Positions 25,409 to 63,859 of a stretch of DNA of 64,000 nucleotides are shown in pieces; positions within the stretch are counted from its first letter, which is position 1; every line of letters starts with the position of its first letter. The notes under the pieces are model-generated. The model saw nothing but the letters and a program-made list of their open reading frames with translations. It had not been told where the DNA came from and did not search any database. Source of the DNA: Nymphaea colorata (taxonomy: Eukaryota); contig NC_045138.2 in NCBI RefSeq assembly GCF_008831285.2, forward strand, positions 5,208,001 to 5,272,000, read 5' to 3'. Made by a program: the position numbers and the translations under genes.

Positions 25409-25789
25409 AGTGGTTGAGGTGCTGTTATATCATGTTACGGAACGGAACCTTTTCTGTTTCATAGGCTGAAGCCGTCAGTATTTACATATGTCCTGCACTT
25501 GATCTGCTGCAGGAGTTAAGATGCCATCTTAGAGGAAAGGTAAAAATTATCCGATATGTTGTAGTGTTTAAAATCGGTGACAGATTGTAACTATATTTTT
25601 TTGTGGTCAAGTATGAATCTTTTGCATTCAGTCGGCTCTTTTTTTCTCTCCCCTGTTTGATTTAGGTATTGTACATTTTTTATGTCATGTTTTCCATCTG
25701 CATAAGTAGAGTGAATATGTAAAAATCAATAGATTGCAACTGCTTTCAGCAAACATGACAGAAGTCAATAGGACTTCGTCATGTTGGTG

Positions 25790-26297: not shown

Positions 26298-26360
<63 letters not shown>

Positions 26361-33497: not shown

Positions 33498-36400
33498 CTC
33501 CTGCAACCCCACTCCCAGTTTCTCGGTAGATTGAAGGGCAGAGGAAGAGAAGTAATTGTCAGAAGGCTGCGAACAAAATAGGCAAAAAACTGCACATAAA
33601 GACCAGGCTGCCGAAAATTTTTCGTTGACTTATAGATTTCCACCTCCCATTGGTCTTCTCCTATTAAAATTCAAATTGAGCAGGTGGGTCCGTTTGATCA
33701 CCACCACCACCACATTATCCTCTTGCGAGTGGTAGAGCACTGAAGTAATCAACTTATGGAAGAAATTCGGCCCTTGACTGCTCAAGAAATTCCGCCTTCA
33801 ATTCTGTCAGTTGTAACTCATTGGCTTCAGTCCTTTCACGCTGTTTTGTCAATTCCTTACACTGTATTCTTCTTCTCTTCCAGAATAGCTACGTTCATAT
33901 TGCTGCTTCTTTTCTCTCTCCATTTCATTATATTTTCTTCATTCACATTAACTTTAATTCCCATCAATCGTGGTGTGATCTGTTATAATACGAGAATACA
34001 TGAGAAAAATACTCATCGGCACATTTTTTATAGGTTGTGTTAAAGAAGAAATTCAATTTCTTAATTTACTTGCTCGTAAATAATTCTGGAAGAAAATCCC
34101 CAAAGCCAAGCCTTCTACATCCCCTAGAGTTCCCCCTTTCGGACTTGTCAGATTTCTTGTTAATCTTTTATTTCATTGATTTTATTATGTAAAAATACTT
34201 TACATATATGATCTGCAATCCAAATTTATTTAGCATAAAGTTCATATTGGACTCGTTGCAAAAATACATATTGAGTCAAACAGCCATATCTTAACCTTTG
34301 TCATAATGGTAAGATTCACATAAAGTAATATGAGAGAGAGAGAGAGATAGAGGAGACCAGAAGATGATGGTTGAACCAAGTGGACAATTATATACATCTA
34401 AACGCAATGTTCAAAACTATTTTTTTGAATAACAATCTAACCTTTTAGATATTATCTTAAGAGTATTTTAGTTGTTACTAGTTGAGATTGTAAGTCTGAA
34501 GCCTTTGTACCCCATCTAATGTCATTAACAAACACACACACATACACATTACCACTTGGCTAAGGGATAAAGCCAAACGTCTTAAATTTATATTAAAAGA
34601 TATTTTAACTACACGGGCTTGGACCCTGCTAGCCTGCTACCCGGACCACTATTAACAGGTCAAGCCGCACCCGGTACCGGGTGATGAAAAGAATGCATGA
34701 GGCCTGGCCCATTTTTGCAGCCTCCGTGGCATCGCTTCTGCCAGACTGCCACTTCCTCCTGCTTCTTTCCTCCACCACTTCACACTCCGATTGGACCGGC
34801 CAAACCCAACATGCTCTTCAACCACCATCCCGCCTTCCCCATCTTACGAATGTCACCTGATTCAGCCCAACGGAGAACAGTCATTCACATCAGATTCTTT
34901 CCAATGTAGAACAACCATCCACAGAGAGAGAGAGAGAGGGAGAGAGAGAGAGAGACACGGTAGACTCGTGATAATGGAATTGATGAGTCCTCAAGCTGAG
35001 CAGTAGTTGGGCGGCGACAAATGGTTTGGATTTGGAACAAGAGGCAACAAATTGGTGATGGCATGGAAGGCACGGCCGCGCAAGCCTGGAGGTCCGATGA
35101 CGGCGATGCAGCCTGGTGAGACCCCAACGGCGAAGGAAGAAAACGAATACTAAATCGAACTTTCAATTTTTGAAAGTTTGAAACCCTTACAAATTAAACA
35201 GACTTCAAAATGTATTTAAAAATTTAAAATAAAAAAATTGTTGGGCTTACCAGGCCAGCGACTTGCTGCATGTAATGTCCGATACCTGGCCCGCAAAGTT
35301 ACCGGGCTGGGTCTGATCATACCAGCCCATGCATATGCTCGACTCCGTCAAGGGTGGCAATGACTCCTCCTCCTCCTCCCCCCAACCCAACTTTCTATTC
35401 TTGTTCCTTTTTTCCTTTTTTTTTAGGTAGGGGAGGTGATTGCCCAATGCACTGGATGTGTCAGAAGCTGGAGCATTTTAGTTTTGTTTCTTTACCATTG
35501 CCAAGTGCAGCCACTTCAGTTTTGATCTTTTGCATTCATTTTTTCATTATGAAATGTCAAAGGTGGTGGTTGGATGATTCAGTTATTTGGACGTCGAATA
35601 TTTGTTGTAGTAAGAATTCTCTAGAAGCAACTTCATGTATGTATTCACATCTATTTTGAAGTAATGAATTTGAATGCACATTCATTACTCTGAAAAAGTT
35701 AGTTGATATGAAAAAAGAAAAAAACAACACTTTAATTAAAAAAACTGAATGGGATTTATACTTAGGAAATGACTTTTGATTGGATTCGAATACGGGTTCA
35801 GTTTTAACTAAATATCCCATCATATTCTGATTCAGGTTTCTTTCGAATTCAATTTTAAATGAATTATCATACACCCAATTTATACGTTTTGAATATCTGT
35901 ACATTCTTAACATATCATAATGTGGTTTTGCTTCTTGTAGTTAAAAGTTGGATTCAGGTGTGGATCTAAATCTAAAATCAAATTTGAATTGTGAATTTAA
36001 ATCAAATTTGAATGTGGATACACCATGGATTTTTCTTCCTTAGTATTTAAATCCAAATTCAAAATCGAATTATGAATATCCGATAAATTTGATATGGTAA
36101 CATGAGATTTTATTTGAAGCCAATCCTTTAACATTCACGTGTTACTGCAATTTATTTTTTTTCTTTTTCTCATTAACAAATTGTTTAGAGTCTTTGGTAC
36201 TGAACCACATCAAGAATGCTCTGCCAAAAATCCTATTGAAGCTATCACATAGCTTTGTCGTTCATCAAAAATCCATAAATCCATTATCAAGGGAGGAAGT
36301 CAGATTCAAGATCGGTACCTTTTATCTAGTCAGGTTCAAGATCGGTACTTTTTATCTAGTCAGGTTCAAGATTAATACATACCTCGCTATTAGTTTTAGA

Positions 36401-42162: not shown

Positions 42163-42723
42163 ATGGCTGCTCATCTTGCCTCCCTTTCCACTCTTTTTGT
42201 TACTTCCCCCAAGCTTGCTTCTAATAGCAAGGCTGGGTTCAAGCCATGGAGCACCACCCTGGTGAGATGTGAGCCAAGGGCTGAGGGCTGCGGTAGGTCT
42301 GCTGCTCAAAGGAGGCCTTCCAGATACCAGCCAAGTACATGGAACTATGACTTCATCCAGTCCATTACCAGCGCAACATCAGTAATTTTCCATACCTCTG
42401 ATCTGACTATTATTTTGTTTATTTGGGTGTGATGATGTGATCATAATTGAAAGACATGAAAATCAAAGCAGATCGAAACACAAAGGACCAGAGTCGAAGA
42501 ATTGAGAAGAGAAGTCCGACAACTTATAACATCTACAACTGAGCAAGTGGCTCAGTTGGAGCTCATCATTCACTTGAACGTTTAGGTGTAGCGTATCACT
42601 TTGAGAGTGAGATCAGGCGATCGCTAGATGCCATATCCACGAGCACTAGAGGATTTGAGGACCTCTACTCCTCTTCACTTCGGTTCAGAATTCTGAGGCA
42701 ACATGGCTATAATGTTTCTGCAG
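42163..42723 (+). CDS. Terpene-synthase-like gene, copy 1, partial (exon 1 42163-42381, exon 2 42472-42723), cut by the assembly gap
   Basis: Essentially identical to 56688-57249 except for a 1-bp deletion at ~42568 near the contig end. Confidence 0.75.
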
Positions 42724-42770
42724 GTATACATATATATATACACATGTGTTAATTCCAAAAATTGACTCAA

Positions 42771-42870
42771 NNNNNNNNNNNNNNNNNNNNNNNNNNNNNN
42801 NNNNNNNNNNNNNNNNNNNNNNNNNNNNNNNNNNNNNNNNNNNNNNNNNNNNNNNNNNNNNNNNNNNNNN
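42771..42870. other. Assembly gap (100 N)
   Basis: Run of exactly 100 N, a typical placeholder for a gap of unknown size. Confidence 1.
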
Positions 42871-45045
42871 GGAATCAAATCAATCAAGCTGGTCAATTCA
42901 GTAAAATTGGCTATTTTACAATTCAATTGATTCAAACTGTGAATCGGCAAAGGTCTATATAAAATTTACCTATTTTAAACGATAATACCAAAAACATATA
43001 TGTACAATTAAATAGGTAGTGTGGTTGTTAACCTCCTGTTCTGCCAAAATTTGGCTTAACAGTGATTCGGGTAGGATAGGTAACTTCAGTTTGATTCCAA
43101 TAATTTTGCTTTAAAGGCATTGATCCAAAGATATACATGAAAAAAGTTATGAACTTTCCAATAGAATCCTGCTAGGGAGGAGGCCTGAAGTGTACAAGAA
43201 GAAATAGCAACAAAAACTTACACACACTTTAGACGGTGTTTGATAATATGACACATTGTGTTCTTTGGAACCCAAACTTTCCTGTTCGAATGAGATGTCA
43301 AAAACAGAAGAGAGTTCTTAAAAGAAAACTCCAAAAGAAAGAAGAATTCAACAATTCTGATTCATAATTGAATTCGGATTTGGTACAGTTTTGTAACTGG
43401 GTCCGATGGATACCAGATTCCAATGGATCTGAAACCCAGCGACATGCAAAAACAACGTTGGCAGATATGGTCTGTCTCCATAGCAGAATGAATGAGCTGT
43501 CTTACGGCATGATGGTGAGGGTCTCTAGAGAAGGTAGACATGCATACAAGGATTTCTTGCTGGTTTCACACAAATTTAAGTTTTAATAATTTGACGTGGA
43601 ACAACTGATACGAGCAAAGAGGCCACTGACTGAACAAAACTAGCTAAAAGAAGCAAGAAATACTTGGGTAGAATATTTGCCTCAAGTGCAATTGTCCTCG
43701 ACTACTGGGCAGATTGGAGCTCTTCTTACAAGACCACCACAACTACTTTTCTTCCTTGATGTCGGACTATTTGTCTGCACATAGCATCTCCCTCCCCTGT
43801 CTCTCTTCATTAACACAAATAAACAATGCCACAAGTTGAAGAGAAGATGTGGGTGTGTTTTTTATCATTCTAAAAGCAATTCCATTCTCTCCTCTACTTT
43901 GCGTGAGTGTATGGCCAGCAGACAAAAGGTACTCCGTTGCAACAAATTCAAACCAAATTTACAGTATTATCATATTGGGTTTATTAGAAGTTCACATACT
44001 TAGATTCAAAATTAAGATTTGAATGCTAATGAAAGACAAGTTTATGTGAATGCAATTTTAAATTTACAGTCTGATCTAATCGATATCAGCTTTTACATTA
44101 ACATGATCGAAGTCGGAATCCAACCTTTAATTATACAATGAAATCCAGACCATATTTTCATATGTGAAAGCAGAAATTTTTTTTGTAGCAAGGGCCAAAT
44201 ATAGTTTCAAAATTTAAGAGGGGCTGAAATAAAAAAAACTTCAAATTATATATATGTAATATATATATATAATATATATATATCAAATCTGTCTAGTGAC
44301 ATTTTTAAAATCCAAATACATCCAATTTCTTAATCAGACATCAATTTTTTTTTCTTTTTTGTTTCCTTGTCTAATGCAGTCGGATATTGGATCCATCGAC
44401 AACCTTAGCTCTACCCTTAAATAGAGATTATTCATCCTCAAAAAAGAAATACCCTCTTTATTCTTGAGAATTCGTCGTCCTTAAAGAATAGGGTGCTTTG
44501 AGCTAATGAGAAAAAATAAAGATACGTTGCTTGTGCCAGTAGTACAGTATAGCCAGGGGAAAAAATTTTACATCCCTTCTGCTCTGAATTAAAATGATAA
44601 CCACTTGTAGCTTTTAAATGCGGTCACCTTAAATACGTTTGGCCTTTCTATAATTAATATCAATGTGTACAAGTACTTTTATAAACAAACACTTCTTGGC
44701 CTTTTTTCCTTTTCTTTTTACCCCAATTTTAAATTTGTTCATGAGGACATACATTTCCTTTTTCTTATACAAAGAATTTCAGCAACTCACAAGAATACAT
44801 TGGAAACTTTTCGAACACAAACTCATTTGGACAAGGACATGTTGAAAAATATTATATATAACAAAACTATTTTCTCTTTCTTAATAAATTAAACAAAGTT
44901 AGGATGATTTAAGTCAACTGCAAGTGTTTATGTGTTTTTTTAATAAAATGTTGTTGATCATGTTAATTAATGTGTAAACACTGAAGGCTTCAGCCTATGA
45001 AACAGAAAAGGTTCCATAACATGATATAACAGCACCTCAACCACT

Positions 45046-48000
45046 TTAGCCTAGGATGGATAACCTTTCCCCAAGATGGTCTCTGAGTTCGTGCGGCAGA
45101 TGGAGTGCTGGACAAAAGTAAATTACCAACTTTTCAAGCTTCAAGAGGCAGGCAATCTGTTCGTTTGCATCCATGGGACATGTTGTTGCTACTGCATCAT
45201 TTTCATTTTGGTGGGTAGTAATGTCCTCCAGAGACTTCAGCTTGGGGAAGTATTGAAGCTCTAGGTATCTCAGTTTTGGGAGGCATTGCCAGTGGCCTCC
45301 CAAGCTGATGTCCTCATAGAAATAGTTTAGGTACAATGTTTCCAGTTGGGAGAGACCCCACACCCACTGAGGCACCCTTTCCAATTAGACCTCATCAACA
45401 TTCGTGTCGCTCAAAGACAGAGACTTGAAGGAGGGTAGAAATGTTGATTCCTACGATGGCAATGGCAATGGCAGTAGTACTGCTGAGTCTGGTTCCAACC
45501 TTAACTCAATGAGGTTAGGCAGTTGCTCAAGGAATTTCCATCCCAATCTTGCACTTAGGCAACAACACACTGACAGACTTTGGAGCTGAGTCACTTGACC
45601 GTCATCCCCCACCAGCTCCAATAGAGTATCAAGCAAGGCTTCTGTCTGCATCTTTGGACATCCATAAAATTCGCCTCCCTTAACCTTGGCATAGAAGTCA
45701 ATGTTGTTTCCCCTATTCCGTCTGCTGGCCTCCCTTCCCAGTTGAGCAATCCTTCCACCATCAACTCCTCAAGTAAAGGAACGTTAACAAGAGCCTTCAA
45801 GCCATTAGGTCCGTACACCTTCAATGACTTGAGAGCAGGCATGTGATGAGGTATTTGCTCTAGGCTGCAGCATTCCTCCACCTTCAATGACTCCAAGGCA
45901 GGCATGCTAGCTATTTCACATACTGCTGGGCAATTGATGACATTTAGTACTTTCAACAAGGTAATGCTTATTAGTTTTCCTCATAAATGGCATCTTTCTG
46001 GCTTTAGTGAATGTAGCTTGGTATACTCAGCATTCAAATGCCAAGCTGGCATCTTTCCTTTATAATCACCTATCTCCCAGCACTCCAGCGCAAGTGGAGA
46101 TTCCAAGGCCTCCAGCGCACCACTCCATTCAGAAGCACCACACTGTTCGTCATTACTCTCTTCAGAAGTACCACTCTGTTCAGAAACACCTCCAGTAATT
46201 CGAAAGTAGAATTCCAAACTAATTATGCCATGCTTCTCCTTAAGCAATTGCACATTTCTTGCAAAATCAATTGCCTTTCTTGTCACCCCTAACCCTTGTG
46301 TCCCCTTTGTCATCCGTAAATTGGTAAACTTCCCCAGGCCTTCTGCTATAAATTTTAATTCCCACGTCCATTTCATCCCAAGATACCTCAAGTTGCAGAG
46401 TTTGTCCATTTCCTTGGGCAACTCTTCAATTTTACTATAATTTGAATCCAATGTTTGCAAGATACAGAGTCTGCAGATTGAACTGGGCAACCGTCCCACT
46501 TTAGAATTGCTTAGATTGAGATATTTTACAAGTGAAAGGTATTCAATGGACTTTGGCAGCTCATCCATTTCGCACCCCTCAATGACAACACTCTCAACCA
46601 CTTGAAATTGGTCAAGTGTTCAATATAAACCTGCAAGTAAGAATTGGAATCAGCCAACAATGTGCACACCTTATTTGCTGTTTCCAATTATGCTTGTGTG
46701 CCTCTGCATTGTGTACACCAAGTAATGACAGATGGCGGGTGTGCTTAGTAGTAGAGGCATGGCCATATTCCCTTCCACCTATATATAAGGCAAGGTCATG
46801 CAAAATGTGATGCAATTGGATGCTCTTCAAATCAATTTCTTCACTCAAACACCACCTTATCAAATCTTCAATGTATTGGTTTGCTGTTGCTTCAACATCT
46901 AGGCCTTCCTCAATCAATCCCTACTCATTTTCTTGGTGTGCATCATGGACCCACCATCTTAATCACAAGTGGCAACCCACCACACTTCTTTACTAATCCC
47001 TCTCCAACAAATTTGATCTTATGCATCACCAAATCTTCTTCTGTTTAGCCTTCTCTGAGAACCTCCTTCAGAAACAAGTCCCAACTTTGGTGGAAAATAA
47101 ATTCTTGTAATTCATGCATATAAAAAGCACCCATCCCCTCCGACACATATTTCTTTCTACTGGTAATCAAAATTTTCCTCCCATTGCACCCACCATCAAT
47201 GTACCCCCTATCTTTTCCTTGCACCATTTTACTTCCCATACATCATGTAGGACCAACAAAATTTTTTCCTTTCAGAGCTCGTTCTGTAATTGTGTGCATA
47301 AGTCAGTCAAGGAACAATCAGTGTTTTCTCCAGAACTCTTGCACACATCCCTTTGTATCAGCCACACCAAATCCTTATGGTTTGAACTTTCCAAAACACA
47401 AACCCACCACCTGCGTTCCCGAACTGTTGTTCAACTTCATTAATACCATGTTAGCAAGAGTCGTTTAACTGATCCCTCCCTTTCCAACAATGGAGATAAT
47501 AGAAGCACCACCCTTCTCAGTCTTACTACAAAAGTCATTCGATGAGAGCATTTCTACTAACACCTTTTTATCATTTTCCCTGCCTATGGGCAGTTGTACA
47601 CCTACGTGATGGGTTACCTCTTTGGGGTTGTCATGTTTACCATGAACAGGGTCCTTACCACCCCCTTGTGGTGTTGTTTTGAAACTATCCACCATGTCCC
47701 AATCTTTCTTTATTTTATCAAGCATTTCATTGATTTTCTTCATTTTGTTAACAAGTTGGTAACAAAAAGAAACATCTTCATAATAGGAAGAGGGCGCAGT
47801 GGTCAAAGCCCACTTCCGTAGCTGATCCCTCTTGCTGGCCTCAATTTTGCTTTGATATCCTTTGATGATGTCCTCGGCATCATAAAGAACATCCTTGTGC
47901 TCAAACTCTAGTTCTCTGTCGCAATCCTTGCTGAAAAAAGACTTGATCAGCATCTTTGATGGCCTTTAGGAAGATTTTCAGGATCCTTTGGAGCTTCTTC

Positions 48001-48101
48001 AGATCGTCTTTGGCATTCAATAAGTAGTCTTTCATCTCTTTCAACAAATTGGTTGCAGTAGAAATGGCTATTTGCACAGGAGCGTCTATTAATGCCCCCA
48101 T
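45046..48101 (-). pseudogene. CC-NB-ARC-LRR (NLR) pseudogene, copy D
   Basis: Paralog or allele of copy C with the same RNBS-D deletion and LRR TAA. It has an extra frameshift in the P-loop (GKGGIS*). Confidence 0.9.
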
Positions 48102-51100
48102 CTCCTGCAACCCCACTCCCAGTTTCTCGGTAGATTGAAGGGCAGAGGAAGAGAAGTAATTGTAAGAAGGCTGCGAACAAAATAGGCAAAAAACTGCACA
48201 TAAAGACCAGGCTGCCGAAAATTTTTCGTTGACTTATAGATTTCCACCTCCCAATGGTCTTCTCCTCAAAAAATTCAAATTGAGCAGGTAGGTCCGTTTG
48301 ATCACCACCACCACCACATTATCCTCTTGCAAGTGGTAGAGCGCTGAAGTAATCAAGTTACGGAAGAAATTCCGTCCTCAATTAGGTCAGCTGTTACTCA
48401 TTGGCTTCAGTCCTTTCACCCTGTTTTGTCAATTCCTTACACTGTGTTCTTCTTCTCTTCCAGAATAGCTACATTCATATTGCTGCTTCTTTTCTCTCTC
48501 CATTTCATTATATTTTCTTCATTCACATTAACTTTAATTCCCATCAATCATGGTGTGATCTGTTATAATACGAGAAAACATGAGAAAAATACTCATCGGC
48601 ACATTTTTTATAGGTTGTGTTAAAGAAGAAATTCAATTTCTTAATTTACTTGCTCCTAAATAATTCTGGTAGAAAATCCCCAAAGCCAAGCCTTCTACAT
48701 CCCCTAGAGTTCCCCCTTTCGGACTTGTCAGATTTCTTGTTAATCTTTTATTTCATTGATTTTATTATGTAAAAATAATTTACATATATGATCTGCAATC
48801 CAAATTTATTTAGCATAAAGTTCATATTGGACTCAGTTGCAAAAATACATATTGAGTCCAACAGCCATATCTTGACCTTTATCATAATGTTAAGATTCAC
48901 ATAAAGTAATATGAGAGAGAGAGAGAGAATGAGAACAGAAGATGATGGTTGAACCAAGTGGACAATTATATACATCTAAACGCAATGTTCAAAACTATTT
49001 TTTTATATAACAATCTAACCTTTTAGGTATTATCTTAAGAGTATTTTAGTTGTTAATAGTTGAGATTGTAAGTCTGAAGCCTTTGTACCCCATCCCTATT
49101 GTCATTAACAAACACACACACACACATTACCACTTGGCTAAGGGATAATGCCAAACCTCTTAAATTTATATTAAAAGATATTTTAACTACCCGGGCTTGG
49201 ACCCGGCCCACTATTAACAGGTCAAGCCGCACCCGGTACCGGGCGATGATAAGAATGCATGAGGCCTGGCCCATTTTTGCAGCCTCCGTGGCATCGCTTC
49301 TGCCAGACTGCCACTTCCTCCTTCTTCTTTCCTCCACCACTTCACGCTCCGATTGGACAGGCCAAACCCAACATGCTCTTCAACCACCATCCCACCTTCC
49401 CCATCTTACGAATGTCACCTGATTCAGCCCAATGGGGAACAGTCATTCACATCAGATTCATTCCAATGTAGAACAACCATCCACAAAGAGAGAGAGAGGG
49501 AGAGAGAGAGAGACAGGGTAGACTCGTGATAATGGAATCGATGAGTCCTCAAGCTGAGCAGTAGTTGGGTGGCGTCAAATGGTTTGGTTTTAAAACAAGA
49601 GGCAACAAATTGGCGATGGCATGGAAGGCACGGCCGCGCAAGCTAGGAGGTGCGATGATGGTGATGCAGCCTGGTGAGATGCCGTCGGTGAAGGAAGAAA
49701 ACGAATACTAAATCGAACTTTCAATTTTTGAAAGTTTGAAACCTTTACAAAGTAAACAGACTTCAAAATGTATTTTAAAATTAAAAATAAAAAAAATTGT
49801 TGGGCTTACCAGGCCAGCGACGAGCTGCATGTAATGTCCGATACCTGGCCCAAAAGTTACCGTGCCGGGTCTGATCATACAGGCCCATGCATATGCTCGA
49901 CTCCGTCAAGGTTGGCAATGACTCCTCCTCCTCCTCCCCCCAACCCAACTTTCTATTTTTGTTCCTTTTTTCCTTTTTTTTTTAGGTAGGGGAGGTGATT
50001 GCCCAATGCACTGGATGTGTCAGAAGCTGGAGAATTTTAGTTTTGTTTCTTTACCATTGCCAAGTGCAGCCACTTCAGTTTTGATCTTTTGCATTCATTT
50101 TTTCATTATGAAATGTCAAAGGTGGTTGTTGGATGATTCAGTTATTTGGACATTGAATATTTGTTGTAGTAAGAATTCTCTAGAAGCAACTTCATGTATG
50201 TATTCACATCTATTTTGAAGTAATGAATTTGAATGCACATTCATTACTCTGAAAAAGTTAGTTGATATGAAAAAAAGAAAAAAGCAGCACTTTAATTAAA
50301 AAAACTGAATGGGATTTATACTTAGGAAATGACTTTTGATTGGATTCGAATACGGGTTCAGTTTTAACTAAATATCCCATCATATTCTGATTCAGGTTTC
50401 CTTTCTAATTCAATTTCAAATGAATTATCATACACCCAATTTGTACGTTTTGAATATCTGTACATTCTTAACATATCATAATGTGGTTTTGCTTCTTGTA
50501 GTTAAAAGTTGGATTCAGGTGTGGATGTAAATCTAAAATCAAATTTGAATTGTGAATTTAAATCAAATTTGAATGTGGATACGGCATGGATTTTTCTTCC
50601 TTAGTATTGAAATCCAAATTCAAATTCGAATTATGAATATCTGATAAATTTGATATGGTAACATGAGATTTTGTTTGAATAAAATCCTTTAACATTCACG
50701 TGTTACTGCAATTTATTTTATTTCTTTTTCTCATTAACAAATTGTTTAGAGTCTTGGTACTGAACCACATCAAGAAAGCTCCCTCAAAAATCCTATTGAA
50801 GCTATCACATAGCTTTGTCGTTCATCAAAAATCCATAAACCTTAATTTTATTGTAGTGTGGCCAACACAAGCTTACATGCTCATTCATTATCAAGTGAGG
50901 AAGTCAAATTCAAGATCGGTACCTTTTATCTAGTCAGGTCCAAGATTAATACATACCTTGCTATTAGTTTTAGACCACTACTTTAGCCACCTTTGAATCC
51001 TTCTTCTCTTTATAAAGCATTTATTTGTCATTATATTAGCAATCCCAAAATACTGATTTTCCTTCAGAAATGCTCCTTCGACGGGATTTGAGTACAAGAG

Positions 51101-54100
51101 GATCAGGGGAGGAGCTTCCTTCATCTACTTCTTCTAGAGTAGACGATTCTTCCTCATTATCTAGGCTTCATCTTATACCTAATGATGGGAGGGGCGTCTT
51201 CTCATAATTGCCAAGATTAGATAGGATGTCTTCTTTACTATTTACACATGCAAACAAAGATTTTTTGATAGTTTCAAAAGCATTTCAAACTTTTGAAATT
51301 AAAGGCATTGGAGACTTTGCTTAGACTCTTTCTTTATGAGCTTAAGTTATTCTCTGACCTACAACAAATGTAATGATGTTGTTATAATATTTAAATCATT
51401 TTCCAAACTCGTTAATCCTAGTTTCCATCCAGGAAAGAGAATTTAAAAACGCAAAATCTCTCTTTTAATCTCTCTCCAATTTTTCTTTCTCTCTCTCTCT
51501 CTGATTTCTCTCTTTTTTTAGATCTATCTCTCTAAAATTTCTCTTTTTTCTCTCTCTCGCTCTCTCTTCAGTTCTCTCTCTCCCTTTTTTAAAATCTCTT
51601 TCTTTCTCTCTATTTATTTTACCTCTCTTTTAATCTCTCTTTTTTCTTTTTCTTTTTTTAATATTTATATCTTGGATTTCTCTATTTCTCTCTCCTATTT
51701 TTCTCTCTCTCTCTATGATTTCTCTCTCTTTTTAGATCTCTCTCTCTAAAATTTCTCTTTTTTCTCTGTCTTCAATTCTCTCTCTCCCTTTTTAAAAATC
51801 TTTCTGTCTCTCTCTCTTTCTTTTACCTCTCTTTTAATCTCTCTTTTTTCTTTTTAAACCCCCCCCCTCTTTTTCCCTCTCTCCACCCCCTTTAAACAAA
51901 TAATGGGTAGGACAATGGTTGCGTTAGGCAGCGTGTTGCAGCCATGTCTTCAGTTTGATTCTTGGAGGGTGTTATCCTAATGGTATTGAAAAACAATGTT
52001 GATTTTAAGATTAGGGTTGCCATTATGAGGTCAACTGGACTGGTTCTTGTCTCCTCCCCCACCCACCTTTACTCCCCTCCTTTTAGACTTCTCTCCATTT
52101 TACTCTCTCTTCTAATTTCTCTCTCTTTCTATTTGTATATTAAACAAAAAAAGCTCCCATTTTGCATGCCCCAAAATCATTCGACTTCACCAAGGCCAAT
52201 ACCCATGATCCTTATCATTCGGACTACACTTGGATGGCATAAAACTCATTTTTGAAAACCTTTTTTTTTAATACGCATGTTGTGGTATGAATGACTTATC
52301 TAATTTTCTTTCAAGCATAGAGAATTCTTTCTCTTTTCATTTCTTTCATATTCACCATGCATCCATAACATTCATGGATACCCACAACCACTGCTTTAGG
52401 AAACCTAAGCAAAACATGATCGAGCCTTAATAATACGGTAATAGAGTTAATAGCGGTGTTTGATTAACAGTAAGAAGGTGAAAATTTGGTATGAGTATCG
52501 GGGATAGGGGATTCCAGAACAACTACTCAAGCAAGATGATCTTATGAAATTACACAGTCACATGAAAGCTACAGTGGAGGCAGTTCTTACCCACAAGCAA
52601 GAATTTCCTGCTAGAGATATATTTTCTATGTCAGTCTAGTTTCTTATTAGCTCTTCTTCTCCTATTGATTGTGATGACGTTCTGACATGAGGTACTCATA
52701 ATTTCATTAACTTGAGATGAAATGGATATGAAAAAAAAACAGTAGACCATGAGATCCAGGGGTGAAGCCAGCAATTTTTTGTAGGATGGGCTGAACAGTA
52801 TTTGCAAAAACTATACAAGGGCTAAACAATATTTTTCAAAAATTTTACATAGGCCAATTTAAAAATTTATTAAAATGTAGGTATCAATTTTTTTTTCCCC
52901 AAAACATGAAGGGGAGGGGCCATGGCTCCTGCCAGTTCCCCCTCCTTCTGCCCCAGCCTACATCCTTACAATAAGATTATTTGGTAAATGATACTTACTA
53001 TCATGAGTGTCGCTGGTACATTGATGTATCAGCAGGATTGGCTTCCTAGTAATGCGCCATACTTGTGTTCATACATCCAGAATTTGGAATTTAAGACGAT
53101 GGCGCAAATATTCACTAATCTTGATTAAATTGTGATGAACAGTCAATAATTTATAGAAAAAAGCTTAGTTAAAAAAACTCTCGGCTGTCTTGTTATCAAT
53201 CACTAATTTTTACACGGGCTTTGCTCACCTATTTGTAAAATTGAAAAGAAAGAAGTGGATCAATGGCAAAAACATTAAAAAATTTTAACTGTACAAATTT
53301 AAATAGATTTAATTTTAGGCCATTGACATTTCCACGATTGCCAAATCCCAACCATGAAAATGCAATCTACATTATTAAATTTTTCAAACCAACAAAGCTG
53401 CTTATCATGCATATCAAACTTTAGTTTTCTTTTGATTTGGAAACATGGTTTCTACCAAGATAATATTTTCCACAAATCACTTTCTTTTTCATTCATAATA
53501 ATATGGGGAAAATGGAAAAGTGAGTTGTGAACAAGGTTGGCATCGAGAAAAAAGAAAGAAGTGAGAGAAATGTTTGAAAATGGAAATAAATCGGCTTGTT
53601 GTTCACTCTACGATAATGGAAAGAGAAGGAAAATGAAGGTAGTGCGCTACAGGCATGGTCTATGATTGGTGTTAAATAAATCCGGAAAAATTCCCAATCC
53701 ACAAACTTCTACATCACCTACACTTCCTCTTTCTCACATTTGTCGGATTTCTCATTGTATTATGTAAAAGTTTGGATGCATGATTTTTCTTTTCCAAATC
53801 CAAAATTTTATTTATCCCATCCAAGTTTCATGATCTGACCATTGACTAGAAGTACAACTTGTTCGTGCCGCGAGGGAATGCCATCGACCTTGCCAAACGT
53901 AAGGCTGAACATCCCTGTTATGAAGAGACAAAGCTGATGATGTCCAGGACTGATATTAATCCAGTTGAGCTGTTTTATTTCAACAAACTCTGTTTGACAG
54001 AACCAAGAGCTCAGAATGGAATGTGAAAGGTCTCTCTAACCATAGCAACAGGGCATGATCAAGTGGCACTAGCCACGCAAAGTTGGCTCAGACCAATTAC

Positions 54101-55007
54101 GTACTCATGGTTAGGTTTTGTTATTAGTCTTTTGACCTATTTCATTTCAAGTGGGCTTTTTTTTTTATTTCATTTCGTAGAAGTTAGAGCAAAAGAAGAG
54201 AGAAAAGCTTCACTTTGGATGCTTTCTTGATAAGTGTGTAAAATTTCTGATTTTGACTCCCTAAAGTCTATCGATAGTGGCCCCTCTTTTTTTTTTTCAA
54301 GACAGTCATTCTTTTTTTTTAAGAAATTATTTGTTTTAAAATTTTAATGGTGTCTCAGCATTAATCAGTTTTCTTGCTTTAAAACATTAAAAAAATCAAA
54401 TACCAATAATTTAACAAATATGACATAGTGTTATAAGCGAAATTATCGCTATGGTGAGAATATAATATACATGATGGGTATTATTGAATGTCTCAGAATG
54501 AGAACGTAAGTCAAACTGTTGAGAGATCAGTGAGTCCTTATGGTCTCTTATTTGTCTAATATGTGGCTTATAGCTAGAGTATTTCTAATTTTTCAACAAA
54601 ACCAGATTAGCTAAATTTAAATTTGATTCCACCAGTAAAAAAGACAAAGTGACGAGAACATCACTTTCTTTATGAAAAAAGAAGAAGAAGAAAAATTTAG
54701 CATATTTTTATAATTAAAATTTATTAAAAAATTGCCTCCACCATTTTCTAGGTTGGGCACATCTGATTATGGACCTGATTTTGAACTGTAGCTAGTAAAA
54801 AAGCATTGTGCCATTACTAATCAAATTTGTGTTCCTTTATGTTTTATGCCATATTCAGGCCCGAGTCCACTTAGTGTTACGGAGATGCAACCCAATATAT
54901 TTGGGATCATATGCTTCTTCGATCCAAATTCAGTTTTGAAAAGTAGAGCCCACATCTGAATCCCAAGTCCTCCCTAAATCCAAACCACTGGCACCCATAG
55001 TTGCGCA

Positions 55008-55379
55008 TAGGGATGCCTATATATCAGCTTTGGATAGAAAATCTAATCGATCTGTTTCGAAGAAATTGGATATGAAAAAGAAAAAAATATCCTATTAAAA
55101 AGGAGGATTGAATTCAGCTTTAATAATTGGCTTCCAATCAGATTTTCGGATATACATGAACATCCGGTTGGATTTGCATATGGATTTGAATCAGATTTGT
55201 TATTATGCAAATATCCTATTCAGTTCAAAATGGGTCAATTTCAGTTCAAAATTCGTATTCAGATATGAATATGAAAATTATATTCAAATCAAATAGAATT
55301 TCTGAAATAGGATTCTAGATTTGGATTTAGATATTGCTAAAGGTAAATCCAGTTTGACTATGATCCATTGACATCCCTA
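55008..55379. mobile_element. hAT-like MITE, TAGGGATG family, upstream of TPS copy 2
   Basis: Duplicate of 40488-40857. Confidence 0.7.
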
Positions 55380-55774
55380 ATTGTGGTTGAAGGGGTGGGT
55401 AGCTTTGTCCTTCCTTCCTTTCTTTCTCCTTTGGCATATGACCAGTAGTGAGGTTAGTGGTTTCTTTTTGTGAAAGAGGCCTTAAAGATAGTTGGGTCTG
55501 CCACATGTTTTCATCATTTTTTTCTTTTTCCTCTTCTCCCTTACATGCTTTGTTCAGAACATTGGCAGAAACACATGGTGGCTGGTGTGGGCCAGCTGCG
55601 ACACCAACCCATTAAAATTTTCATTGAAGCAATGAATACATTCCACATTTATACAAAGAATTATAACTTACACAAACACCATCTTTTAGTGCATTTTATT
55701 TTTGCTCAAAGAAAGTGTGTCAAACGACTATAGCTTATGTAAGCAACATAATGTAAGATGTCACTCGTCATTCA

Positions 55775-56620
55775 AATTCTCTAACCATTATTGACACGCA
55801 ATGTGCACTCGATTACGGCTCTCTATAAGGTAGCAAACCATGTTCATAATAATGTTGAAAGGACATGTTGCACCACTTAAAGGTGAAGGGGTGCAAATAC
55901 TCAAAAACGTGTAAAAAATAAACATGGTCTTTCATAAAAATGGTTTTTAGTGGTGAGCATTAACAAATAAGTGTCGGATATAATGCCCGTCAAAAACGTG
56001 AAGAAAGAATGCATTCTATCTATACACAAATAAAATAAAAGTACCAAATAACTATGGCTTAGGCAAGTGTCATAGTTTAATGCATTCCATTTATATAGAA
56101 AGAAAAAAGTATCAAACATTTATAGCTTACGCAAATAGCATATTTTTAAGAGATTGAAACTTATTAAAATTCTTTAACCATTATAGACACGCAATATACA
56201 CTTGGATGCAGCTCTTTATAAGCTAGCAAACCATGTTCATAATATTGTTGAAACGGCAAGTAGCACCACTTAAAGGTGAAGGCGTGCAATTACTCAAATA
56301 CTTGTAAAAAATAAACATGGTCTTTCATAAAAATGGTTTTTAGTGGTGAGCATTAACAAATAAGTGTCGGATTATAATGCATATCAAAAACTTGAAGAAA
56401 GAATGCATTCTATCTATAAAATAAAAGTGCCAAATAATTATGGCTTGGCCAAGTGTCATAGTTTAATGCTTTCTATTTATATACAAAGAAAAAAGCATTA
56501 AACATTTATAGGTTATGCAAACACCATATTTTAATAGATTGAACCTAATTAAAATTCTCAAACCATTATAGACACGCAATCCACACTCGGATGCAGCTCT
56601 ATATAAATTAGCAAACCAAT
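55775..56620 (+). promoter_or_regulatory. TPS proximal promoter built from ~390-bp tandem units; TATA box TATATAAA at 56600-56607
   Basis: Units start at 55783, 56176 and 56561. The last unit carries a canonical TATA 88 bp upstream of the ATG. Confidence 0.65.
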
Positions 56621-56687
56621 CCTGAGCTAAGTCATCCGAGAGGCAGTGAAAGCATTCAGCATTCAACAACAAACACACACTGTTCTA

Positions 56688-59193
56688 ATGGCTGCTCATC
56701 TTGCCTCCCTTTCCACTCTTTTTGTTACTTCCCCCAAGCTTGCTTCTAATAGCAAGGCTGGGTTCAAGCCATGGAGCACCACCCTGGTGAGATGTGAGCC
56801 AAGGGCTGAGGGCTGCGGTAGGTCTGCTGCTCAAAGGAGGCCTTCCAGATACCAGCCAAGTACATGGAACTATGACTTCATCCAGTCCATTACCAGCGCA
56901 ACATCAGTAATTTTCCATACCTCTGATCTGACTATTATTTTGTTTATTTGGGTGTGATGATGTGATCATAATTGAAAGACATGAAAATCAAAGCAGATCG
57001 AAACACAAAGGACCAGAGTCGAAGAATTGAGAAGAGAAGTCCGACAACTTATAACATCTACAACTGAGCAAGTGGCTCAGTTGGAGCTCATCAATTCACT
57101 TGAACGTTTAGGTGTAGCGTATCACTTTGAGAGTGAGATCAGGCGATCGCTAGATGCCATATCCACGAGCACTAGAGGATTTGAGGACCTCTACTCCTCT
57201 TCACTTCGGTTCAGAATTCTGAGGCAACATGGCTATAATGTTTCTGCAGGTATACATATATATATACACATGTGTTAATTCCAAAAAACTGACTCAATAA
57301 TTAGTTCTTAATCTAGACTGTCTATTACGAATGTGTTAATTGACACTAACCATTAAAGTTTCTTTTTGCATTTCGTAGAGTGCTTTAGTAGATTTAGGGA
57401 ACAGTCAGGCCGGTTCTCTGAGAATCTTCGTGAGGACGTGAGAGGGTTGCTGAGCCTCTACGAAGCATCACAACTAGCCTGTGAAGGAGAAACTGTGTTG
57501 GAAGAAGCTACGGCCTTCTCTTCAGAGCATCTTAGAGCAAGGATAAGCCGCATGGACCAGAGGATGTCTCGACAGGTACAGCGTGCTCTGCAGGTTCCGC
57601 TCCACAGAAGGGTTCGCAGGGTCGAGGCCCGAGAGTATATTGAGACATTCGAGAGGACGGACCGCAGAAGCCAAGTGCTGCATGAGTTTGCTAGGCTGGA
57701 CTTCAACATGGTGCAGACAATCCACCAAAGAGAGCTCAGGGAGTTATCCGGGTACAATTCATTCTTGCACTTTTGCCTAAATAACTTGGTTAATAGTTGA
57801 TAATAATGCAGCAACTAATGTCATTCTATGTATATATGTATATCAGTAATGAATATCTTGTATGTTACATTGTTGCTGGCCTGCATCATTGGGTCCATGA
57901 ATAATCAACCATGAGTCCTTTGTTTTGGGTGTTTGCAGGTGGTGGAGGGACTTGGGCTTGGGCGAGCACATTAGCTTCGCCAGAGATAGGCTGGTGGAGA
58001 GCTACTTCATGGCGGTGGGGAAGATGCATGAGCCACAGTTCTCACAGTACAGGATGCAACTCGCCAGGGTCTCGTACTTGATGGCCACCGTTGAGGACAT
58101 CTTCAGCGAGCATCAGTCTGTTGAGGAGCTCGAACGCTTTGTGCAAGTTGTTGAGAGGTAAAGGATGATCATGGTTGATGAATTAGAGAGAGCAACTCTG
58201 TCTCTAGTTTCTGCTTCACATTGTTAGGAGCCAATGAGGATGCTCTATATTGTATATACGCAGGTGGGATCTTCAAGCGGCAGAGCAGCTGCCTCAGTCA
58301 CTGAGGGTCTTCTATGCGGCTGTCTACAACACAACCAACCAGATCAGCTACACTGTTCTTAGGAGGCATGGCCGTGATATCACTTCACACATGAGGAGAG
58401 CGGTACGACACTTTCTCTATGAAATATTTCTTCTACTCTTCACATCATCACATTAGTATATTAGCTTCACTTTCTAATTGACTTGCTCTCTTCTACTCTT
58501 GGGCAGTGGGTGAGTGTGTGCAGAGCTTACTTGGTTGAAGCAAGGTGGCACCGTGCCCGGCAGACACCAAGGCTAGAGGAATATTTGAGCAACATCCGGG
58601 CAGCCATGACCGGCCCTATTCTCCTCCCTGCCTACTTCTTCCTCTCCCAAAACATTGAGGAACAAGCAATCCAGCAGCTGCAGAATGACTCCAACATCAT
58701 CAACTTCTCATCGATGATAGTTCGTCTCTCGGCAGACCTCCAGAGATCCAGGGTTAGTTTAGTGTATTTTCTGCTGGTTAACTAGTATTAGCTTCTGAGT
58801 TGACAATGTTCTTGTTCTGTTTTTTTTTATTTGATTGGCTGATGATCTTCTCTTTATATGTTGAACACTTGATCGAAGGTTGGATTCGGGAGAGGGAACC
58901 TGCCTAGATCGGTCCAGATTTATATGAACGAGGCAAGGGTAGCGGAGGAGCAAGCACGGCAGCACATAAGGAAGTTGCTAAGGGATGCATGGAGGAGGCT
59001 GAACAGGGAGCTGCTCTCTGCTCAGCAGCAGCAGCAACAGACCGCCTTCTCTCGTTCCTTCATGAACGTGGCTCTCAACATTGCGAGGGTCTCCCAGTGC
59101 ATGTACGACTATGAAGATGGCGTCGGTGTCTTGGAGCATGAGTCCATGGACCGTATCTACTCTCTCATTGCCGAGCCCATCCAGACTGCCTAA
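56688..59193 (+). CDS. Terpene-synthase-like protein (TPS-b-like, predicted plastid transit peptide, 587 aa) lacking DDxxD and NSE/DTE; exons 56688-56906, 56997-57249, 57379-57751, 57939-58157, 58264-58402, 58507-58752, 58879-59193
   Basis: RRx8W (RRPSRYQPSTW), LELINSLERLGVAYHFESEI, LRFRILRQHGY, GLLSLYEAS, ARLDFNMVQ, FARDRLVE, AYLVEARW and LEEYL. Class III 7-exon layout with GT-AG introns; exons total 1764 nt, in frame to TAA. Confidence 0.92.
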
Positions 59194-59780: not shown

Positions 59781-61522
59781 GGAAGAGCAGAGGAAAAGAA
59801 TCAGAAGTGAAGAAATTCGGCAAATTAAGGAAGAGATCAAACTTATAAAGGTGAGCAAGTGGACTCTCGCTTTCTTTTAACTCAGAAAATTAAATTTCTC
59901 AAGTTGCTGAGTTTATGAGAGAATATATCTTTAAGGGTCCATTTGTTTGCTTCCAATCAGAAGCTTTACCGATTTGGACTATGGTGAGCCCATAGGCTTC
60001 TATGCACACCGGCAAAGTTTCATATATTTTTTCTGCCAAACAAATCTGGGAAAAATGTCTCAATCCCAATCTTGTACAATTCCCTTTTCTCACGTTTGCA
60101 TATTTCTTTTTCGAGGGTTTTCTTCTATCCTATTTTTTCTCTTCTCAAAATCACAAAGCTTATTTAGATATCAGGCTTGGGCAATTTATGGTTCTTGCAC
60201 CAAGGATTGGATAATAAGATACAACTCTAACCTTCTGCCCAAAATTGCTGACCCAAGACGAGACAGGAGAGGAATGGATATGTAAATTACTTGATGTTAA
60301 AAATATTTTCTTCCCATGCTTCCTAACTTTTAACATATCGAATTAAAATTAAGTAATTTGGTATATATCCAATTGGATAGTAAATTCAAAATAAAATAAA
60401 GCTAAATTTATATATCCAAATCCAAATTTAAATATCTGAGTCCAATCCATAGTTAAAATCGGAGTTTCAATATACATCAAATCCAAAGTTATTACAACTA
60501 AAAATGTTCTCAAAGTTCTAGATCTGGACCCGGTTCAAAGTAAGGGTGTTTTCATATACAACAACCGTCCTTTATGTTTTTATGATGTAATCTTCTCACC
60601 CACCGTTTTGCATAGGGCTAAGTATATAAACTCCCTCAGCGCCTTATGTTGCCCTTTAGTTTATAAAAGGAGCTAAGAGGGCATTTGGCAATAGAGACAC
60701 TTTGTGAGTGACCTACAAATCTACACCAAAATTATAGAAGGTTCATTGGACACTAGAGCTATTGGTTCATGACCTTTATCAATTTTCTGGGCAGATTCAT
60801 GGAACCTTCACAATCAATGCTACCCCTCAAAGGAACACATTGCTCACATGCAGTCATTCATTATTTATTAAAATATTAGAATGACATTTTTCAATTAATA
60901 AATTTTGTTTCCATAACAATTTAAGAGCAACAATATTTCCTAATCAACGTCCTAATAGTTTGAAAATTCTTAGAAGGAGTAATCACCCCAAATTTCCTAA
61001 AATTCAATATTTATCATTTTCCAAACATTTCATGATAACAACTGCCTCAGCCCCTGCCCCACTTCCAACTCTATAGCAAACTTGGCCATGCACCCACCAA
61101 ATGGGTGTCGCTTTCAAACATACACCTGCCATCGCCACTGTCTCCACAAGAAGTGGAGAAATCCTGCATTTCTTCACCACTCGCACAGCCCAGTTCTTTC
61201 TTTTGACCATGTCCTGCAAGGTTATCTGAAGATCCCGGGAGAAGACGGCATTTTAGAACTGCCGCATCTGCTGTCGTAGGCACAAACCTCGCCAGAGAGG
61301 GCATTCCAAGCGTGATTTTCTCTGGAGCGCATTTTTGGCTGGAGGCGATTCAGAGGTCGAGTAAGGTGGCGTTGGATTTGGGCACGTGTCTAGTATTCTT
61401 TATCTATTTTTCAGATTTTTTGGACAGTCTGTGAAGAGATACAGAATTTACAAGTGCCACAGATTTCTAAAGGACCCTGCGACCCAGACTCTCTTCAGCT
61501 GGGAATCTGCAGTGTCAATATC

Positions 61523-63640
61523 ATGGCTGACACTGCTGGATCAAATCAAAGAGATAAAACATTCAAGGGAGCCAAGTCCACCGAGCATAATACCCTGAAA
61601 ATCAAAGAGATAAAACATTCATGGGAGTTTTGCGAAGGCTGCTCAATTGGTTCTTAGTGGAAAATCAAAGGCATGATATATTAATGGGAAAATCAAAGCT
61701 CCAACCACTACTGATCCCAACTATCATGAGTGGGAATCAGAGAATGGCATGGTTATGGCGTGGCTGCTCAACTCTATGGAACCATCCATAGCAAATCTGT
61801 TTACATATCAAGATACTGCTTGCGGAATATGGGAGGCTTTAAAAGAACTTTACAGTGAGCAAAATAATCTTGCTCAAGTATACCAGATACAATGCAAGAT
61901 TCCCAATCTCACCCTCCATGACCAAGATGTGCAGCAGTACATTGGGATACTCAGGATTCCATATGATGAGCTCCTCCAATATCGACCAGCGACCTCTGAT
62001 CCAGTCATTTACGAACAACATTTTGAAGAAGATCAAATCTTCAAGGTCCTCGTTGGATTGAGTGAGGACTATGAAGCCATAAGGACTCAAATCCTGAATA
62101 CTATGCCGCTGCCAAAATTCAATGCTGTTTGTCAAATGATTCAGAGAGAGGTGTCAAGGCGAAGAGTCATGAGCGTCCCTCCTAAAATGGACGCCATAGA
62201 AGACAGCCAAAAAAGAATGGTGTGTCTTTCACAATCGGGCACTAATCAAGGCATACAAAGGTACCACTCAAACACACAGAAAAATCACAGCAAACTTAAG
62301 TGTACTCACTGCAGGAAATTGGGTCACACACGCGATCGCCGCAGGGAACTTGTGTTTCTACCAGGGAAGGAAAAGGGATCTTCTTCAATACCAGACAAAG
62401 ACATCAACCTTGCAAACTTTGTCAGCAAAGATGAGTGACGTCTCAGAAGGTAAGTTCTGTGCCTTATTGACTGACACTAAAAATAAATCCTCGATAGTTG
62501 ATTCTAGTGCCACTGATCACATGACTAATGATCCCACAAGACTTGCCGATCTAAATAAGGATCTTCATCGTTCTGTTTTTTCTGCTGTTGGGTCATCTAT
62601 GGTTGTTCCTGGCATTGGAAAAACATTCTTCGAGAAAAATATTAGTTCCGCTTTACTTGTTCCTTAGCTTGCTATCAACCTTATGTATGTTAGCAAAATC
62701 ACTGAAGATTATAATTGTGTGGTTATTTTCTCCAAGAAGGTTGTAACATTTCAGGACCCGAGCACGAAGAAGGTGACTGGTAAGGTTCGATGCCATGGTG
62801 AACCCTACACTTTGGACACCGACAGTTTGAGTTGATTCACCAAACCAAAATCTACTCCAAGGAAGGACTATCAAATTTGACATGATTGATTAGGACACAT
62901 ATATGAATGGAACCTCAGTTCCCTCATCACTTCCCTCACCATTGATGATAATAAAGAATGTAATGCATGCGAATTCGCCAAATTCACATGCCTCACCTTC
63001 TTGCCGATTCATGAAAGGTCTGAAAAAGATTTCAATCTCATTCACTCGGATGTTTGGGGACCTGCTCCAGAGGACTCTCATGCCGGTTTTAAGTTTTATG
63101 TCTCTTTCATTGATGATAAGACTCGTGTAACTTCGATTTATTTTTTCAAAAATAAGAGTGAAGTTCCAAAAAATTTTGTAGAATTCTGTGCCCTCATTCT
63201 CCCTCAATATGTTGCTAAGATTAAAATGCTTCGCTTTGACAATGGTTGTGAATATGTGAATGATGCATTGAAAAACTTTATGAGGAAGCATGGAATACAG
63301 CCCCAATGTACCTGCACCGGGATGCCTCCGCAAAACGGCATTGCAGAAAGAAAAAACCGACAACTTCTGAATATTGCTCGGGCTTTTATGATGCACATGA
63401 ACGTACCTCAGACAACTTCTGAATATTGCTCGGGCTCTTATGATGCACATGAACGTACCTCAGATTTTTTGGAGCGAAGCCATTGGGACAGCATGTTATG
63501 TATCCAATCGAGTTCCAAACTCTAGAATAGAAGGAAAAATTCCCCTTGAGCAACTTCTCAATAAGCAGCTGTCACTTGAACACCTCAGGGTATTTGGGTG
63601 CAAATGTTTCGTACTTGTGCAAGAAAGATTTAGAAAAAAT
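61523..63640 (+). mobile_element. Degenerate Ty1/copia element (gag, protease, integrase), truncated before RT
   Basis: gag VMAWLLNSMEPSI, broken zinc knuckle CTHCRKLGH, protease IVDSSATDHMT and integrase LIHSDVWGP...PPQNGIAERKNR, with multiple stops and frameshifts. Confidence 0.88.
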
Positions 63641-63859
63641 TCCAGTGATTACATGGTCTACTTTAACTACTATATTGTTTGTCAAGTATTGCTTCAAACT
63701 TAAATTATTGTTATCTATACATTCATTTTTTTTTTTGGGTCTGTGATGTAATATATTGTAGTCAACTATTTAGAATCAAGTAGTAGTATCACGTGCATAT
63801 CATTGTGCATCTTTGGACTCCCATTTCCAGTGGTGGAGATAGGAATTTCTGGTTAAGTA

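Follow-up and report, generated by a model that had tools for sequence, protein, structure and literature searches.

Why does a plant keep an apparently whole terpene synthase (TPS) gene whose product has lost the residues that hold the catalytic metal? The question is raised by a gene at 56688-59193, on the plus strand, of a 64,000-nucleotide (nt) stretch of Nymphaea colorata DNA (contig NC_045138.2, positions 5,208,001 to 5,272,000, RefSeq assembly GCF_008831285.2; this whole stretch is called the window, and coordinates are its own). Ionisation by a class I TPS requires a trinuclear metal cluster bound by two motifs, DDxxD and (N/D)Dxx(S/T)xxxE (the NSE/DTE motif). A sequence-only reading had singled the gene out as intact over seven exons and as lacking both. 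It placed the finding at 58093..58900, which is right for the motif sites but covers exons 4-7 only of a gene that starts at 56688. We find that the gene belongs to a Nymphaea clade in which the metal site has been dismantled, nearly every lysine of the mature protein removed and the reading frame maintained. The clade has very probably been retained for its protein.

A complete gene with a dismantled active site

Once spliced, the seven exons (Table 1) give 1764 nt and a protein of 587 amino acids (aa) with one terminal stop. The six introns (90, 129, 187, 106, 104 and 126 nt) have GT..AG borders throughout, and all six lengths are matched by joints in relatives' RNA-type contigs. The translation bears out the sequence-only reading with respect to the splice sites, the frame, the RRx8W motif (residues 50-60, 56835-56867, exon 1) and the RxR motif, here RDR (residues 297-299, 57982-57990). 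In a Pfam scan of five exons taken singly, PF01397 was found in exons 2 and 3 and PF03936 in exons 4, 6 and 7. The two domains, the seven-exon/six-intron layout, RRx8W, RxR and a two-domain helical fold are all features of the TPS-b subfamily. On these characters the protein is TPS-b by descent, but it lacks the two metal motifs that define the enzyme, DDxxD (here EDIFS) and NSE/DTE (here A477, R481 and G485). Intron 1 ends in a tandem AAG-CAG acceptor (56991-56996), where use of the site 3 nt upstream adds one Gln to give 588 aa; the gene models of relatives are split between the two acceptors, with 587 or 588 residues.

All five Mg2+ ligands are substituted (D334E, D338S, N/D477A, T481R and E485G). 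The DDxxD position reads EDIFS at exactly the codons that had been claimed, and the loss of NSE/DTE across intron 6, at a site that runs from 58732 to 58884, was likewise verified. No DDxxD-like or (N/D)Dxx(S/T)xxxE match occurs anywhere along the full 587-aa protein. The motif loss is not a matter of chance, because DDxxD is present in 124, and the second motif in 122, of the 128 homologues from outside Nymphaea (480-640 aa). That the motifs are merely hidden by mis-splicing or misalignment was ruled out by the intron joints in transcripts and by the homologue alignment.

The homologues have 93 columns with a conservation of 90% or more, of which 75 are retained and 18 altered in the present protein, compared with a median deviation of 3 in canonical proteins. 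The metal-ligand columns in this conserved set are altered in four cases out of four, versus 14 of the 89 others (Fisher p=0.001), N/D477 being the fifth ligand. Exon 4 aligns without gaps to tobacco epi-aristolochene synthase (R297=R264, M306=W273, K310=V277, E334=D301, S338=D305). The pocket aromatics are lost as well, with Met306 (58009-58011) in place of Trp and Val in place of His or another aromatic at 565, and helix-G Ser434 and Gly562 are gone. What is retained are R297, R299, D335, R474, D478, Y559 and D563, together with a basic residue at 493. Among Nymphaea copies with sequence at the position in question, E334 is present in 21/21, A477 in 18/18, R481 in 17/17, M306 in 19/20 and K310 in 19/20, while position 338 is non-Asp in 18/19 and position 485 non-Glu in 7/8. 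The roles of these residues in metal binding, diphosphate binding and cation stabilisation are established knowledge. Part of them is stated in the available passages of PMC10600500.

An AlphaFold model of the N. thermarum orthologue P0164 (93% identical; 111-sequence alignment) has a mean predicted local distance difference test score (pLDDT) of 85.7, and compares with solved monoterpene synthases at target template-modelling (TM) scores of 0.90-0.95. Judged from this orthologue model, the TPS fold is intact. The substitutions support the view that the protein would be unable to bind the usual three-metal cluster, and without that Mg2+ cluster prenyl diphosphates would almost certainly not be ionised.

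The motif-less Nymphaea clade

The closest proteins are all from N. colorata or N. thermarum. For example, P0051 of N. colorata (XP_031472856.2/XP_031505920.2) is identical at 318/320 positions in the C-terminal domain, and P0164 of N. thermarum (KAF3787809.1, 588 aa) at 545/587 overall. A quick tree with 58 rows and a midpoint root places 11/11 motif-less rows on one branch, with a Shimodaira-Hasegawa-like approximate likelihood ratio test (SH-aLRT) value of 100. The stem of this branch measures 1.1 changes per site, a length to which compositional bias may contribute, whereas the crown is below 0.1 and the end branches are below 0.08. With both motifs absent, and grouping with the N. colorata copies, the present gene is a member of this clade. 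No intermediates were found outside Nymphaea: identity drops from 82-93% to at most 43% within the best 150 of 3615 representatives. Among the matches listed, no protein more than 52% identical comes from outside N. colorata and N. thermarum, in a library from which other Nymphaeales are possibly absent. The ESM Atlas yielded ordinary TPS clusters only, and a metagenome scan yielded 3 loci at 36-39% identity, outside the clade.

Most database relatives of the gene are fragments or fusions. P0010 (XP_049931518.1) matches the gene exactly across exons 3-6, but its model splices them to a Copia gag that is 66-75% like the Copia element at 61400-63500. It probably represents a further near-identical copy or else an annotation error. 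In P0215 and P0217, clade fragments are fused to PF03468-bearing proteins. Databases label the members of the clade alpha-terpineol or thujene synthase.

The loss of the motifs is already published and is common to dozens of copies, so the finding as first worded is not new. The sequence-only reading had mentioned a water-lily precedent, and this proved real: N. colorata has more than 80 TPS-b genes, most of them without both catalytic motifs (Zhang et al., Nature 577:79, PMC7015852, cited here from its main text, the legend of Extended Data Fig. 7 and Table S20). In the petal, one motif-bearing TPS-b is the sole gene highly expressed (PMC7015852). Table S20 has 85 TPS-b entries, of which 27 are at least 500 aa long, 4 at least 570 aa and 39 below 400 aa. 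The main text, as available, proposes no role, and the terms lysine, arginine, storage and pseudogene are absent from it.

Depletion of lysine in the mature protein

Counted from RRx8W onward, the mature part of the protein comprises 538 residues, and it was compared with a reference of 87 full-motif (canonical) TPS homologues. It contains 2 Lys (0.4%), against 5.8±0.9% in the canonical set, and 13.2% Arg, against 5.6±0.6%. Gln stands at 8.0% (canonical 3.6%), Asp at 3.3% (6.6%), Cys at 0.7% (1.6%) and Trp at 1.3% (2.2%). The isoelectric point (pI) is 9.0 compared with 5.4, and the nitrogen content is 1.58 atoms per residue compared with 1.39, the maximum among the 87 being 1.43. The binomial probability of finding 2 Lys or fewer is 6e-12. 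All 19 of the majority-Lys columns are altered, 15 of them to Arg; of the majority-Arg columns, 2 of 21 are altered.

The purge is clade-wide, with 64 Lys at 7002 well-aligned positions (0.9%) over 29 clade proteins and 1.1% in P0164. Of the two mature Lys in the present protein, K515 corresponds to Asn in most relatives. Lys310 (58021-58023), the second, is a clade-fixed gain at a position where canonical TPS are 86% hydrophobic; no other mature Lys is conserved. As a control, the first 36 residues (56688-56795) hold 3 Lys, and those of seven relatives 2-4. This N-terminus, with 10 Ser/Thr and no Asp or Glu, looks by its composition like a plastid transit peptide.

Avoidance of Lys throughout the genome or genus was ruled out by P0126, a canonical N. 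colorata TPS with 7.4% Lys, and by the other frames of the window (SNF2 7.6%, nucleotide-binding leucine-rich-repeat receptor (NLR) 8.8%, Copia 6.7%); the lowest value among 132 canonical proteins is 3.1%. GC-biased drift was ruled out as well. GC at third codon positions (GC3) is elevated, at 0.61 versus 0.39 in the SNF2 exon, but Gly and Pro are reduced, and a GAP/FYMIN proxy for GC, regressed on the 132 canonical proteins, predicts 5.8% Lys. We found no prior report of the purge, in literature searches that mostly exclude subscription journals and none of which was aimed at Nymphaea together with lysine; the available passages of PMC10753166 and PMC12899119 do not mention it.

Such a protein could be proposed as a non-catalytic partner subunit. 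It would bind a working terpene synthase or prenyltransferase and adjust its activity, much as tryptophan synthase alpha is tuned by TSB-like, a documented plant pseudoenzyme (PMC12727527, in the part available). The fold (in the orthologue model) and the plastid-type N-terminus are retained, and canonical TPS-b genes such as P0126 are present in the same genus. Yet a surface charge rewired to this extent (pI 9.0 vs 5.4) would tend to break inherited interfaces, and both the Lys purge and the explosion of copies are left unexplained. Moreover, in petals, the terpene-emitting organ, only the motif-bearing member is reported as highly expressed (PMC7015852). We consider a partner subunit quite improbable.

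Transcription and selection

Eight of 24 listed sequencing runs were examined, most of them only guessed to be RNA. Exon-confined spliced contigs were present in six of the eight (X1, X5, X8, X9, X12 and X15, from organisms A-E and G and six studies). Their joints match the predicted introns, and all six introns are covered by the six runs jointly. The transcripts are those of relatives, 92-99% alike to the gene. Contig depth is ~5-20 in X8, X9 and X12, ~60 in X15 and 4,000-6,400 per contig in X5. In X1 the summed depth is 2e5-8e5 over most exon bins and 0 on either flank; overlap of short contigs could inflate this sum by an estimated factor of up to ~31, leaving ~1e4 or more. Uncalibrated as these depths are, they hint at high, sample-specific transcript abundance. 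Deep contigs of X1 and X5 also contain rearranged joints (back 70, skip 42, skip 513) at 58330-58374 and 58072-58586, which suggest expressed rearranged paralogues, and reads of run X21 join exon 3 to exon-7-like sequence.

Differences from the relatives' transcripts were counted over 40 of 96 and 40 of 72 listed rows, with 1 intronic and 5 untranslated-region rows set aside. The 52 distinct exonic changes comprise 36 synonymous and 16 non-synonymous ones. Given a neutral synonymous:non-synonymous ratio of 1:2.3-3.3, omega (dN/dS) is ~0.14-0.19 (p<=1e-8), and purifying selection on the frame is supported at the level of the clade. No frameshifting gap is listed in the exons, including the long spliced contigs of X9, X12 and X15, and the listed coding indels are 3-nt changes within a poly-Gln tract of exon 7 (59023-59040). 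A test of constraint at the protein level gave a weak signal, with mismatches at 4.3% of conserved versus 6.2% of variable columns (p=0.03; P0164 alone, p=0.18). The combination of a dN/dS near 1 with absent transcripts, named beforehand as the sign of a pseudogene, does not hold for the clade. With the fold retained, the catalytic residues lost and the coding sequence under purifying selection (gene versus relatives' transcripts), the protein is a candidate pseudoenzyme. The suggestion in the sequence-only reading that it is maintained for another role is partly supported, at the clade level, but five roles had been listed without a choice among them, and the strongest clue, the Lys-to-Arg purge, had been missed.

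It could be argued instead that these genes are decaying duplicates, passengers of NLR clusters and Copia elements, and that the present copy is merely unbroken so far. In favour of this, 39 of the 85 TPS-b entries of N. colorata are shorter than 400 aa and just 4 are 570 aa or longer (Table S20 of PMC7015852), the database relatives are mostly fragments or fusions, rearranged transcripts occur, the flanking NLRs are broken, and the raw-read runs X21 and X22 (~6% of each) contain no 99%-alike read. The argument founders on the 36:16 synonymous excess where neutrality predicts 1:2.3-3.3 (p<=1e-8) and on the lack of any listed frameshifting gap in the exons of the long X9, X12 and X15 contigs. 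In addition, the open frame and the fold survived 1.1 changes per site on the stem, and neutral decay would not selectively remove one amino acid. We regard decay as very unlikely and as largely refuted for the clade, although it may apply to many individual copies.

Possible functions

The Lys-to-Arg purge favours a bulk role in storage or defence, or else a lysine-reactive compartment, over a scaffold or an NLR decoy. The reading that we prefer, while giving it somewhat less than an even chance, is a non-catalytic, plastid-targeted, Arg/Gln-rich bulk protein that serves as a nitrogen store and as Lys-poor food for herbivores. A fuller version is a shade more tentative still: a monoterpene synthase turned into a Lys-free, Arg-rich bulk plastid storage or anti-nutritive protein, encoded in dozens of copies and very highly transcribed somewhere, with the purge of one amino acid, an outlier in the proteome, as the mark of its new function. 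Import into plastids and large-scale production in particular tissues or conditions are, taken by themselves, probable.

Such a protein could have arisen in a few steps. Loss of the Mg2+ cluster would have ended the ionisation of prenyl diphosphates. After catalysis was lost, a very abundant protein might have come under selection for more Gln and for Arg, with its 4 N, in place of Lys with 2 N, and selection may also have removed Lys as a reactive and nutritionally limiting residue. Tandem amplification would have raised the dosage, leaving many broken copies behind. The clade combines a nitrogen-rich composition with a homogeneous multi-gene family, as storage proteins do. According to the available parts of two sources, storage proteins form homogeneous multi-gene families and are often poor in Lys and Trp (PMC6222612), and Arg is the main nitrogen store (PMC12598765).

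Several points weigh against the nitrogen-store reading. Its putative plastid location is a weak point: classical storage proteins are deposited in protein bodies, not in plastids (PMC6222612, same part). Asn is not enriched (3.2% vs 4.6% canonical), and the near-completeness of the purge appears to exceed what the small per-site gain in nitrogen would lead us to expect. We also considered that the purge might serve to avoid ubiquitin during import or to make helices more stable. Contig depth without a calibrating gene is a poor measure of expression, and the raw-read RNA runs gave little: X21 had 23 divergent reads, none of them 99% alike, and X22 had 0, in ~6% of each run. The changes common to all four runs of one comparison set are 8 synonymous and 7 non-synonymous (omega ~0.3-0.4); these 15 shared changes lie most likely on the gene's own lineage, which would mean weaker constraint there. 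Finally, R297, R474, R493 and Y559/D563 persist on the diphosphate side, and R481 and K310, both new and fixed, may represent gains of function.

The residues just named are central to a competing explanation, in which the protein is a metal-free non-canonical enzyme or a ligand binder that works where phenolic quinones or aldehydes attack lysines, such as in plastids or wounded tissue. Arg481 would replace one Mg2+ beside Arg297, Arg474 and Arg493, Lys310, a single helical turn away from the Met that replaces Trp, would act in an enlarged pocket, and the other Lys and some Cys would have been shed to escape cross-linking. The fixation of R481 (17/17) and K310 (19/20) accords with this, as does the place of K310, at V277 of the tobacco enzyme, four residues past W273, in a column that is otherwise hydrophobic (86% in canonical TPS). 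The same can be said of the retained R297, R474, D478, Y559, D563 and RRx8W, and of the low Cys (0.7% vs 1.6%) and Trp (1.3% vs 2.2%) next to 19/19 altered Lys columns. However, Arg is seldom lost anywhere in this protein (2/21 columns), so the retained arginines say little about diphosphate binding, and the pocket aromatics W306 and H565 and helix-G Ser434 are gone. A specialised enzyme would also seldom have such very deep transcripts and dozens of near-identical copies, whereas a stoichiometric binder might. We think a metal-free protein of this kind rather unlikely, and the nitrogen store remains our preferred reading.

Genomic surroundings

The gene stands head-to-head with a fragmented NLR of the coiled-coil (CC)-NB-LRR type, ~8 kb away, and a Copia element lies after it. 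A role as an integrated decoy of an NLR is unsupported, the TPS being a separate gene on the opposite strand at that distance from a broken NLR. As the sequence-only reading had it, the neighbouring NLRs are broken, being split over many short frames. The contrast it drew with the intact TPS is true but weak as evidence, since the clade itself has many fragments (39/85 below 400 aa in Table S20).

Upstream of the gene, each of the ~390-bp promoter units contains an ACACG element, and the units could raise expression. The segment 28245-42770 recurs as 42871-57297, a 14.5-kb direct repeat bounded exactly by a gap of 100 N. The two copies are 96-97% identical, and more than 99% in the final 4 kb, where exons 1-2 of the second copy lie. 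The repeat may be a tandem duplicate, or it may consist of two haplotypes joined at the gap (a false duplication). The NLR copies inside it have most of their breaks in common; among the NLR fragments of the window, the one at 24428-25489 runs in the opposite orientation to the rest.

Table 1. Coordinates of the gene, its parts and the surrounding features in the window
Feature	Position	Strand	Remarks
Copia element	3-3100	-	
SNF2-type chromatin remodeller gene	3675-6942	+	Apparently intact; Helicase_C
Fragmented NB-ARC/LRR gene	14700-18500	-	
Copia element	18750-20950	+	
Fragmented NB-ARC/LRR gene	24400-26300	+	
Fragmented NB-ARC/LRR gene	30500-33750	-	
Near-identical copy of exons 1-2	42163..42770	+	1-bp deletion in exon 2; ended by 100-N gap (42771-42870)
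Fragmented NB-ARC/LRR gene	45000-48300	-	
Promoter region	55655..56618	+	~2.5 tandem units of ~390 bp; TATAAA at 56602
Exon 1	56688..56906	+	73 aa; transit-peptide-like N-terminus and RRx8W
Exon 2	56997..57249	+	PF01397 N-terminal domain
Exon 3	57379..57751	+	PF01397
Exon 4	57939..58157	+	PF03936; RDR, Met306, Lys310
Degenerate DDxxD site, EDIFS	58093..58107	+	D334E, D335 unchanged, D338S
Exon 5	58264..58402	+	
Exon 6	58507..58752	+	PF03936; Arg474 unchanged; first part of NSE/DTE at 58732-58752 (N/D477A, D478 unchanged, T481R)
Exon 7	58879..59193	+	PF03936; E485G (58882-58884), K493R, G562E, H565V; Tyr559 and Asp563 unchanged; ends in stop codon
Copia element	61400-63700	+	

Comparison with known systems

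Nymphaea holds the largest TPS expansion in an early-diverging flowering plant; its members are annotated as scent enzymes, and most copies are motif-less. TPS gene counts probably overstate its terpene capacity. In the literature covered, mostly outside subscription journals, we found no explanation for why motif-less copies persist. If the storage or defence reading is true, the TPS fold would join the enzyme folds that have been recruited as bulk proteins, and the clade would be a clean natural case of selection on the amino-acid composition of a whole protein.

The nearest likeness is to the motif-less TPS-b of N. colorata reported by Zhang 2020 (PMC7015852, in the parts cited above), which belong to the same genus and subfamily and have lost both motifs. 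Beyond that published loss, the present analysis adds the Lys purge, a signal of selection and a hint of abundance. The gene resembles the TPS-b monoterpene synthases (limonene synthase 5UV0, isoprene synthase 3N0F and bornyl diphosphate synthase 1N1Z) in its seven exons, RRx8W, RxR, PF01397 plus PF03936 and two-domain helical fold. Unlike canonical TPS-b, it has neither DDxxD nor NSE/DTE, has lost the pocket Trp and His, and encodes a protein with 0.4% Lys and a pI of 9.0 (canonical range 4.9-6.5).

Soybean vegetative storage protein (VSP) and bark storage protein have enzyme ancestry, with an activity that is weak or gone. Like the vegetative storage proteins patatin, sporamin, ocatin and poplar bark storage protein, the clade is a homogeneous multi-gene family with a nitrogen-rich product. 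Those proteins are related to enzymes or defence proteins, and some are defensive (PMC6222612 and PMC12598765, in the parts available). The folds differ, and those proteins are deposited in protein bodies, whereas the present protein has a plastid-type N-terminus. The eudicot TSB-like pseudoenzyme is similarly a plant paralogue that lost catalytic residues and was kept by selection (PMC12727527, as far as available). TSB-like, however, lost two residues and activates a partner, whereas the change in the present protein extends to the entire metal site and to its surface chemistry.

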